Positions 41,477-42,190 of a DNA stretch of 64,000 bases are shown here, piece by piece. The stretch is from contig JBKBHS010000004.1 in the NCBI GenBank assembly GCA_046299555.1, positions 52,056 to 116,055 on the forward strand, given 5' to 3'. The DNA is from Bacteroidia bacterium. GTDB taxonomy: Bacteria > Bacteroidota > Bacteroidia > JACCXN01. Each line of letters opens with the position of its first letter. Position 1 is the stretch's first letter. The notes below the pieces were generated by a model, which was given only the letters and a program-made list of their open reading frames with translations, was not told the origin of the DNA and made no database searches. The position numbers and the translations under genes were made by a program.

Positions 41477-41728
41477 ATGTCGTATATAGTTTACATATTA
41501 TATTCTTCGTTAAAAGATAAGTATTACATAGGCTATACATCTGATGAAATAGATGAGCGAATTAGGAAACATAATACCAATCATAAAGGATTTACGGGAG
41601 GAGCAGGCGATTGGGAGTTAAAATATTCTGAAGTTTTAACTACGAAGGAAGAAGCTAAAAAGAGAGAGATTCAAATAAAGAAATGGAAAAGTAGAAAATT
41701 AATTGAGCTACTCATTTCAAAGAGTTAG
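41477..41728 (+). CDS. Stand-alone GIY-YIG nuclease, copy 1
   Basis: 83 aa; YIVYILYS...[24 protein letters not shown] keep the family Tyr/Arg/Glu positions. Confidence 0.9.
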
Positions 41729-41816
41729 CAGATTAGGTTCAGAGCATCCCGACTAAAAGTCGGGAGGGGCACAGAGCTTGTTCCGATAAATCGGAATTCG
41801 AATCCTGTTGCTCCCA
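41719..41816 (+). ncRNA. tRNA-Val-derived pseudo-tRNA with two inserted hairpins, copy 1
   Basis: TAGC...GGTTCAGAGCA (D region), TCCCGACT-aaa-AGTCGGGA in place of the anticodon arm, CACAG + AGCTTG-TTCCGA-taaa-TCGGAA + TTCGAATCCTGTTGCTCCCA. Confidence 0.7.
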
Positions 41817-41818
41817 CT

Positions 41819-41845
41819 AAACCTCGCAAATTGCGAGGTTTTTTT
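41819..41845 (+). terminator. Intrinsic terminator, second copy
   Basis: Identical to 41445-41471. Confidence 0.85.
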
Positions 41846-41850
41846 ATTGT

Positions 41851-42102
41851 ATGTCGTATATAGTTTACATATTATATTCTACGTTAAAAGATAAATATTA
41901 CATAGGCTATACATCTGATGAAATAGATGAGCGAATTAGGAAACATAATACCAATCATAAAGGATTTACGGGAGGAGCAGGCGATTGGGAGTTAAAATAT
42001 TCTGAAGTTTTAAATACGAAGGAAGAAGCTAAAAAGAGGGAGATTCAAATAAAGAAATGGAAAAGTAGAAAATTAATTGAGCTACTCATTTCAAAGAGTT
42101 AG
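41851..42102 (+). CDS. Stand-alone GIY-YIG nuclease, copy 2
   Basis: 4 nt and 2 aa differences (S11T, T55N) from copy 1. Confidence 0.9.
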   Translation: MSYIVYILYSTLKDKYYIGYTSDEIDERIRKHNTNHKGFTGGAGDWELKYSEVLNTKEEAKKREIQIKKWKSRKLIELLISKS

Positions 42103-42190
42103 CAGATTAGGTTCAAAGCATCCCGACTAAAAGTCGGGAGGGTCACAGAGCTTGTTCCGATAAATCGGAATTCGAATCCTGTTGCTCCCA
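42093..42190 (+). ncRNA. tRNA-Val-derived pseudo-tRNA, copy 2
   Basis: Same as 41719-41816 except CAAAGCA for CAGAGCA and GGGTCACAG for GGGGCACAG. Confidence 0.7.

Follow-up and report, generated by a model that had tools for sequence, protein, structure and literature searches.

Organization of the tRNA-Val locus

The window examined here is a stretch of 64,000 nucleotides (nt) from a Bacteroidia bacterium (GenBank assembly GCA_046299555.1, contig JBKBHS010000004.1, positions 52,056 to 116,055 of the forward strand). The region of interest is a tRNA-Val gene followed by a tandem pair of small cassettes, each carrying a GIY-YIG nuclease gene and a tRNA-Val look-alike (pseudo-tRNA) with two hairpins. 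ARAGORN reported one tRNA only in the window, tRNA-Val(TAC) at 41368–41443, to which the Rfam tRNA model assigned a score of 75.9 bits. From the T loop onward, a 374-bp unit was present in two head-to-tail copies (41423–41796 and 41797–42170), and the right end of the array was formed by a third copy of the 21-nt sequence TTCGAATCCTGTTGCTCCCAC (42171–42191). Each unit comprised the last 21 nt of the tRNA, an intrinsic terminator, an open reading frame (ORF) for a GIY-YIG protein of 83 amino acids (aa), and a pseudo-tRNA aligning with tRNA-Val from U8. The two units differed at only 6 of 374 positions. The features of the locus, in window coordinates, were:

41319–41346, forward strand: putative promoter 5′ of tRNA-Val, TTGCCA-16-TATATT, also with a TAnnTTTG-type box, TATATTTG (consensus scan)
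41368–41443, forward strand: intact tRNA-Val(TAC) gene (ARAGORN; Rfam tRNA model)
41423–41443, forward strand: direct repeat copy 1 and start of unit 1, T loop to CCCAC, 21 nt (three identical copies at 374-bp spacing)
41445–41474, forward strand: intrinsic terminator, AAACCTCGCAAATTGCGAGGTTT plus a T run, 2 nt 5′ of the ATG of nuclease gene 1
41477–41728, forward strand: GIY-YIG nuclease gene copy 1, 83 aa, with Tyr6, Tyr17 and Glu64 (ORF list; PF01541; nearest solved structure 1ZG2)
41726–41817, forward strand: pseudo-tRNA-Val 1, U8 to CCCAC (alignment with the tRNA; no tRNA call)
41747–41765, forward strand: hairpin 1 copy 1, TCCCGACT-AAA-AGTCGGGA, replacing the anticodon arm (motif search; family-wide covariation)
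41775–41796, forward strand: 22-nt T-arm insert with hairpin 2 (TTCCGATAAATCGGAA, 41781–41796), closing unit 1 (alignment; insert shared with locus L059)
41797–41817, forward strand: direct repeat copy 2 and start of unit 2 (repeat search)
41819–41848, forward strand: second copy of the terminator
41851–42102, forward strand: GIY-YIG nuclease gene copy 2, 83 aa, with S11T and T55N relative to copy 1
42100–42191, forward strand: pseudo-tRNA-Val 2 (alignment with the tRNA)
42121–42139, forward strand: hairpin 1 copy 2 (motif search)
42149–42170, forward strand: 22-nt insert with hairpin 2, copy 2 (hairpin at 42155–42170)
42171–42191, forward strand: direct repeat copy 3 and right end of the array, followed by native flank
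42205–42242, forward strand: native terminator-like hairpin of the locus, AAAAGGGTTACAC...GTGTAACCCTTTTTT (sequence; spanned by DNA contigs, RNA contigs end before it)

The nuclease gene was the sole ORF of at least 60 aa in each unit that was free of an overlapping ORF; two longer ORFs crossed the tRNA gene and the terminator. Both nuclease ORFs matched PF01541 (GIY-YIG; E-values of 4e-15 and 6e-15) over residues 3–73 of 83, so that the protein is a bare GIY-YIG domain with no added DNA-binding domain. A search of NCBIfam with the nuclease protein returned no match. No homologue of the nuclease was found in 50,697 phage records, and the 22-nt insert had no match in viral contigs.

Structure of the pseudo-tRNAs

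Alignment of the region behind each nuclease gene with tRNA-Val confirmed what a preliminary description of the window, made from the letters alone, had claimed: the similarity starts at U8, the nuclease stop codon TAG occupies tRNA positions 8–10, and the segments GGTTCAGAGCA (GGTTCAAAGCA in copy 2) and GGGTCACAG (GGGGCACAG in copy 1) are retained. From the T loop to CCCAC the pseudo-tRNAs were identical to tRNA-Val. Hairpin 1 has the sequence TCCCGACTAAAAGTCGGGA and an 8-bp stem, as had been described, and substitutes tRNA positions 27–43, that is, the anticodon arm, exactly; by chance, 0 matches to it are expected in the window. Hairpin 2 (TTCCGA-taaa-TCGGAA, 6-bp stem) lies within the 22-nt insert that splits the T arm and constitutes the final bases of the unit, abutting the T-loop repeat. 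Both palindromes fit TYCCGAY...RTCGGRA. The D stem and the acceptor stem, already noted as unpaired, were indeed unable to pair, the 5′ strand being missing and the T arm split. ARAGORN made no call for either pseudo-tRNA, the Rfam tRNA model gave no report even at E ≤ 10, and no other Rfam family matched them at this threshold.

The hairpins had also been described as unchanged between the two copies, which is true but carries no weight: with differences at 6 of 374 positions, the 35 hairpin bases would be expected to show only approximately 0.6 changes. That the hairpins agree between copies therefore reflects recent duplication only. Derivation of the hairpin stem from the anticodon arm of another tRNA was considered and rejected, since tRNA-Lys and the other tRNAs at the loci have different stems.

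Conservation and covariation of the hairpin behind related nuclease genes

Eighty Bacteroidota loci were fetched by protein similarity alone, without any hairpin criterion. In most of them a genuine tRNA was located 40–120 nt upstream of the nuclease gene, mainly tRNA-Val(TAC), in some cases tRNA-Arg(TCT) or tRNA-Met. A common design was found at or overlapping the 3′ end of the gene, consisting of GCA, TCCCGA-loop-TCGGGA, GGGTC, the T arm and the 3′ acceptor strand, with the 5′ arm of the hairpin regularly overlapped by the 3′ end of the gene. When hairpins were searched with only the flanks GCA and GGGTC anchored and the stem sequence left unconstrained, they were present in at least 63 of 81 regions, compared to 30 of 405 shuffled regions, and lay within approximately 60 nt of the stop codon. 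The exact stem TCCCGA/TCGGGA occurred in 41 of the 81 regions, and the stem variants were mostly double changes (CTCCGA/TCGGAG, TCCCGC/GCGGGA, TCCCGG/CCGGGA and TTCCGA/TCGGAA).

Covariation was counted on 39 distinct sequences and compared with 500 shuffles. Cells of the alignment changed on both sides of a pair numbered 30, compared to 7.0 ± 2.2 in the shuffles, none of which reached 30, and four of seven pairs covaried, compared to 2.6 in the shuffles (60 of 500 reached four). Standard pairs made up 98.5% of the observed cells and 88.8% of those in the shuffles, a percentage inflated by the selection of instances with at least five of six pairs, which does not inflate the double changes. The central CCG/CGG was invariant. 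At a Fluviicola locus (L059), a complete hairpin-bearing tRNA-Val copy contained the same 22-nt insert in the same place. Relative to the window, one pair of hairpin 2 was switched from T:A to A:T, a compensatory change, and one pair of hairpin 1 from C:G to T:A. Wobble pairs (four G:T vs. two C:A) were too few to tell which strand folds. The host anticodon was retained in 25 of 130 hairpin loops, compared to 16.7 expected, a weak enrichment that is confounded by T-rich loops. The part of the spare copy from the V loop to the 3′ end (approximately 31 nt) was usually an exact duplicate of the local real tRNA, as seen for Val, Arg, Asn, Met, Lys, Ala and Ile, the exception being interruption by a second hairpin.

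The preliminary description had proposed remodelling instead of random decay and had suggested compensatory changes among homologous loci as a check. The excess of double-sided changes, together with the conservation of hairpin 1 behind related GIY-YIG genes across Bacteroidota, bore out this proposal, and the hairpins are very probably a selected, element-borne module and not a product of decay.

Hairpins at other tRNA genes

A motif scan of metagenome contigs yielded 164 matches at 120 loci, which adjoined tRNA genes for Val, Met, Ala, Ile, Arg, Lys, Asn, Thr and others. All 34 motif loci with at least 800 nt on both sides adjoined a genuine tRNA. The hairpin was also found between GAGCA and GGGTC in tandem arrays of 80–90-nt stubs that precede real tRNAs, the largest array having eight (L023:745–1330). 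Such stubs were composed of a short leader, the 5′ acceptor strand, the D arm, the hairpin and a few T-stem bases, and broke off 6–12 nt past the hairpin. Second hairpins of the same kind were located in the D loop, in the T loop or after the T arm.

Units 3′ of nuclease genes were devoid of the 5′ strand and units 5′ of tRNAs of the 3′ half, so that the part common to all units was the hairpin with approximately 10 nt on each side. Judged from these comparisons, the conserved entity is the hairpin and not the tRNA shape. Because the tRNA parts at nuclease genes are usually exact local duplicates, their behaviour is that of a duplicated target or homology segment, and the hairpin behaves as a module belonging to the element.

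Further stub arrays, directly 5′ of real tRNA genes of several identities and many without a nuclease gene nearby, were seen at L007, L010, L015, L019, L092, L100, L112, L128, L131 and L185. Hairpin-bearing tRNA-Ala stubs occurred in the 16S–23S spacer, between tRNA-Ile and tRNA-Ala (L084, L087, L138, L143, L162 and L166), and their location inside rRNA operons makes them probably very highly transcribed. Some hairpin-bearing copies were complete tRNAs with all four stems (L076:1790–1867, L065:1091–1450 and L182). A few complete copies had the 7-nt loop TTTACAA (anticodon TAC) and were called tRNA-Val by ARAGORN; others received odd calls (Stop, SeC, Cys, Glu), which constitutes an annotation trap. 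Stems similar to hairpin 1 ended real tRNAs in L043, L057 and L061.

Turnover and transcription of the cassette

Two relatives were present in hot-spring metagenome contigs, each with one unit in the same place. Their divergence was 4–5% over the cassette and 7–9% in the adjoining flanks. In the first, the nuclease had a premature stop (L48*) and the invariant G:C pair of hairpin 1 was broken; in the second, the nuclease was intact, with seven replacement and four silent changes, and hairpin 1 contained three pair-breaking substitutions. Hairpin 2 and the sequence from the T loop to the 3′ end were unchanged in both, which is not significant for 37 nt at such divergence. The last CCCAC was followed by ACTTAAACT in the relatives and by ATCTAATAAAAAC in the window.

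A sludge population was represented in DNA by a long contig in which the real tRNA was joined directly to a single unit, with a depth equal to that of the flanks. This unit combined a derived base of unit 1 with a derived base of unit 2, indicating that it arose by recombinational collapse of a two-unit array. Unit number varied between populations, one vs. two (runs X1, X14/X15 and X17/X18). The cassette was thus already in place before the split of these lineages; it has undergone duplication and collapse, and some lineages show decay of both the cassette and its hairpin. Such dynamics would fit a selfish cassette and not an RNA needed by the host. On the nuclease tree, 17 switches of host-tRNA identity were counted among 76 genes, fewer than the mean of 22.3 with shuffled labels (0 of 500 at 17 or fewer), yet the cassette appears from this tree to have moved between tRNA kinds many times.

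Four sludge metatranscriptomes each contained one contig that spanned the whole unit (41390 or 41423 to 41799 or 41826), at a depth approximately 0.17–0.22 of that of the upstream gene's contig. No RNA contig covered 42181–42443 in these four data sets, a segment that the DNA runs covered fully. Transcription thus extends across the unit and its pseudo-tRNA, probably because transcripts started at the tRNA promoter read through the terminator; contigs of this type are unable to show a discrete small RNA. The RNA contigs also included a hairpin-bearing stub of a different organism.

Comparison with known systems

No published account of hairpin-bearing tRNA copies associated with GIY-YIG genes was found in the literature searches. 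The closest known system is the Ssn family, of which the cassette nuclease is a candidate member by analogy. SsnA of Neisseria meningitidis is a single-domain GIY-YIG enzyme of 94 aa (Chenal et al., 2025; PMC11893778) that binds the NTS hairpin CGTCATTCCCGCGMAVGCGGGAATCYRG only as single-stranded DNA (ssDNA), cuts a few nt upstream of it, does not act on double-stranded DNA or RNA, and requires the sequence of the palindrome as well as its structure (PMC11893778). Hairpin repeats were reported beside 71% of the genes for ssnA homologues, and the main text of that study does not mention tRNA or Bacteroidota (PMC11893778). The likeness covers several traits: a single GIY-YIG domain in a protein of 80–100 aa without a DNA-binding domain (83 aa in the cassette); a gene flanked by short hairpin repeats with a TCCCG...CGGGA core, two hairpins following each cassette gene; an invariant core with covarying outer pairs; and hairpins without a nuclease gene that outnumber those with one. 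Tyr6, Tyr17 and Glu64 in both copies of the cassette protein match the positions mutated in SsnA, but UPF0213 proteins share them, so they do not discriminate. Unlike Ssn hairpins, those of the cassette are embedded in tRNA copies, as anticodon-arm replacement or loop insert, the gene mostly lies behind a real tRNA, and the cassettes are arranged in tandem. With the Ssn hairpins themselves, those of the cassette have only the TCCCG/CGGGA core in common.

Small elements defined by subterminal hairpins that are recognised in ssDNA, with many gene-less copies, are also known from IS200/IS605 and REP/RAYT systems (PMC11893778), although their enzymes are HUH tyrosine transposases that act through covalent intermediates. 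A GIY-YIG hydrolase is unable to join strands, and host repair or recombination must therefore complete any movement. Insertion by integrases into tRNA genes likewise leaves a direct repeat of the 3′ part of the tRNA flanking the insert and restores the tRNA, but in the cassette the spare copy reaches back to U8 and carries hairpins. No recombinase gene, as expected of an integrase-borne island, was present among the ORFs examined in the 374-bp unit.

The Seg proteins of T-even phages, free-standing GIY-YIG homing endonucleases with SegB within the tRNA gene cluster, resemble the cassette in the position of a GIY-YIG gene beside tRNA genes, in selfish dynamics and in leaving host function intact. 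Seg enzymes are two to three times larger, have a DNA-binding domain and cut double-stranded DNA; to our knowledge, they have no associated hairpin and create no pseudo-tRNA. Unlike a homing endonuclease of the Seg type, the cassette protein is the GIY-YIG domain alone. A type III toxin-antitoxin locus was rejected: RNA repeats were absent upstream of the gene in the window, the protein is of the GIY-YIG type, and only the order of tRNA, terminator and gene is similar. A functional tRNA or tRNA-like RNA was not supported, as the cloverleaf stems cannot form.

Interpretation and rival explanations

At the level of sequence, genes of this nuclease family that adjoin tRNA genes are accompanied, across Bacteroidota, by a conserved, covarying palindrome, and the cassettes multiply, collapse and decay. 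With moderate confidence, by analogy with SsnA, we interpret the region as a tandem pair of small cassettes resident at tRNA-Val, in which the pseudo-tRNA would be the scaffold and homology arm of a selfish element and the hairpins would be the ssDNA recognition sites of the nuclease. On that view, the pseudo-tRNA is most likely neither a gene in decay nor a tRNA-like RNA with a function for the cell. As in the case of SsnA and the NTS, the nuclease would recognise the hairpins when ssDNA is exposed during replication or heavy transcription of the tRNA, the sense strand co-directional with the fork being one that may often be single-stranded. Cleavage beside the hairpins, followed by host recombination between the duplicated tRNA segments, could then lead to insertion and tandem amplification, in a way that would always keep one working tRNA. 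The position of hairpin 2 at the end of the unit and the break of the upstream stubs shortly past the hairpin fit this mechanism without proving it.

Tentatively, the cassette may represent a type of selfish element not described before, for which tRNA genes would serve both as the address and as the scaffold, an extension we consider possible but doubtful. The bare GIY-YIG nuclease would cut approximately 10 nt from the palindrome, acting where single strands of cloverleaf-like form may be exposed by heavy transcription of tRNA genes. Each insertion, whether into the T loop or at the anticodon-arm base, would bring a replacement tRNA segment, and the hairpin-capped spare would be pushed outward. 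Repeated rounds could yield arrays on both sides of tRNAs, including the gene-less 80–90-nt mini-units upstream of them and in rRNA spacers.

Several observations weigh against the selfish-element interpretation or its link to the Ssn family. The published SRM pattern, HGTCWYN(0-2)YYVSBRHN(0-5)WNVSBRGN(0-2)RNCYNB, had 0 hits on both strands of the window and two in 865 kb of loci. The nearest solved structure, 1ZG2 (E-value of 4e-7), is a UPF0213 protein. Among the 34 well-flanked motif loci, a GIY-YIG gene was present within 800 nt in only nine and none was nearby in 25, so that the link between nuclease and hairpin would have to act in trans, or these copies would be relics. The stem of hairpin 1 recurs as ATCCCGAC-ATTT-GTCGGGAT, with A/T-run flanks, in an ordinary two-way terminator between two genes (window 4706–4740). 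No empty-site allele was seen among the one-unit and two-unit alleles examined, so mobility would be deduced and not observed. The transcription of the unit is a further point of this kind.

The preliminary description had offered a functional RNA, including a processing signal for RNase P or Z, as one explanation. An RNA-level role, with the pseudo-tRNA or its hairpins as an mRNA 3′ stabiliser, a processing element, or a decoy or antitoxin RNA following type III logic, is in our estimation unlikely. The RNA contigs that span the whole unit and are lacking over 42181–42443 would suit it, although they are unable to reveal a discrete small RNA; the base-for-base replacement of the anticodon arm could preserve tRNA-like geometry; the pseudo-tRNA region folds better as RNA than its shuffles (z = −3.2); and the order of strong tRNA promoter, terminator and nuclease gene is like that of type III loci, which in the window is set against the lack of RNA repeats upstream of the gene. 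However, the acceptor and D stems are absent, and neither ARAGORN nor the Rfam tRNA model reported the copies. Units elsewhere are truncated on different sides, either without the T arm and 3′ strand or without the 5′ strand, and have the hairpin alone in common. The pair-breaking changes in hairpin 1 of the relatives are uncompensated and accompany, in one of them, a decaying nuclease gene, and SsnA binds ssDNA and not RNA (PMC11893778). A tRNA-shaped RNA or an RNase P/Z signal was not supported. The other suggestion, a DNA site modified to resist the nuclease, came nearer the mark in pointing to DNA, but the hairpins resemble the nuclease's own recognition motif. Its explicit form, in which the nuclease targets the anticodon arm or T loop of tRNA genes as DNA and the hairpins are scars that destroy these targets in the spare copy and prevent recutting, is improbable. 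Each hairpin does coincide exactly with one of the tRNA gene's two symmetric stem-loops, with hairpin 2 at the unit boundary in the T loop, and stubs upstream of tRNAs elsewhere break in the T stem or T loop. Nevertheless, the neighbouring intact tRNA retains both putative targets, and the loss of a target requires neither a single palindrome across hundreds of loci and tRNA kinds nor covariation that preserves pairing.

That the hairpin is an independent mini-palindrome of Bacteroidota, moved by another enzyme and accumulating in redundant tRNA copies with the GIY-YIG gene as a frequent neighbour, is quite unlikely, even though the 25 well-flanked loci without a nuclease gene, the stem in terminators and the tandem hairpin stubs in rRNA operon spacers would all be in line with it. 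Against this, the hairpin was found in at least 63 of 81 loci selected by the protein, within approximately 60 nt of the stop codon; moreover, the 3′ end of the gene regularly overlaps the 5′ arm of the hairpin, and a nuclease-hairpin pair has been proven in a similar protein family (PMC11893778). That a duplicated tRNA gene simply decayed and acquired the hairpins by chance has a negligible likelihood: the copies are a recent duplicate whose identity proves nothing, and hairpin 1 is decaying in the relatives, but the same hairpin occurs in the same position at dozens of unrelated loci with compensatory changes, and in the window no match is expected by chance.

Implications and additional observations

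If the selfish-element interpretation is correct, the recently discovered Ssn-type pair of minimal nuclease and DNA hairpin also exists, and very widely, in a second form: a cassette resident at tRNA genes of Bacteroidota. It would account for many unusual pseudo-tRNA calls, for tRNA stubs in tandem and for surplus hairpins in tRNA and rRNA operons, would provide natural nuclease-hairpin pairs with new specificities for ssDNA tools, and would offer a tractable selfish element that protects the essential gene inside which it lives. For annotation, tRNA look-alikes that carry such hairpins are not to be taken for tRNAs with unusual anticodons.

The terminator 3′ of the tRNA or pseudo-tRNA was alike across distant genomes (AAAGCCTCRCA-loop-TGYGAGGCTTTTTT; window 41445–41467; L004, L005, L006, L017, L024, L029, L033, L039 and L044), and may be part of the cassette. 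Upstream of the intact tRNA (window 41351–41372), the leader CTCCCAA is able to pair with the 5′ acceptor strand TTGGGAG of the tRNA, and TTTGCACTCCCAA in the same interval is similar to the 3′ end of tRNA-Val, as a relic of an older copy, maybe, or by chance. Cassette contigs were binned as Streptomyces griseus, Nomurabacteria, Bifidobacterium, Kuenenia and Akkermansia (L020, L027, L034, L047 and L051), bin names that likely reflect mis-binning and not transfer.

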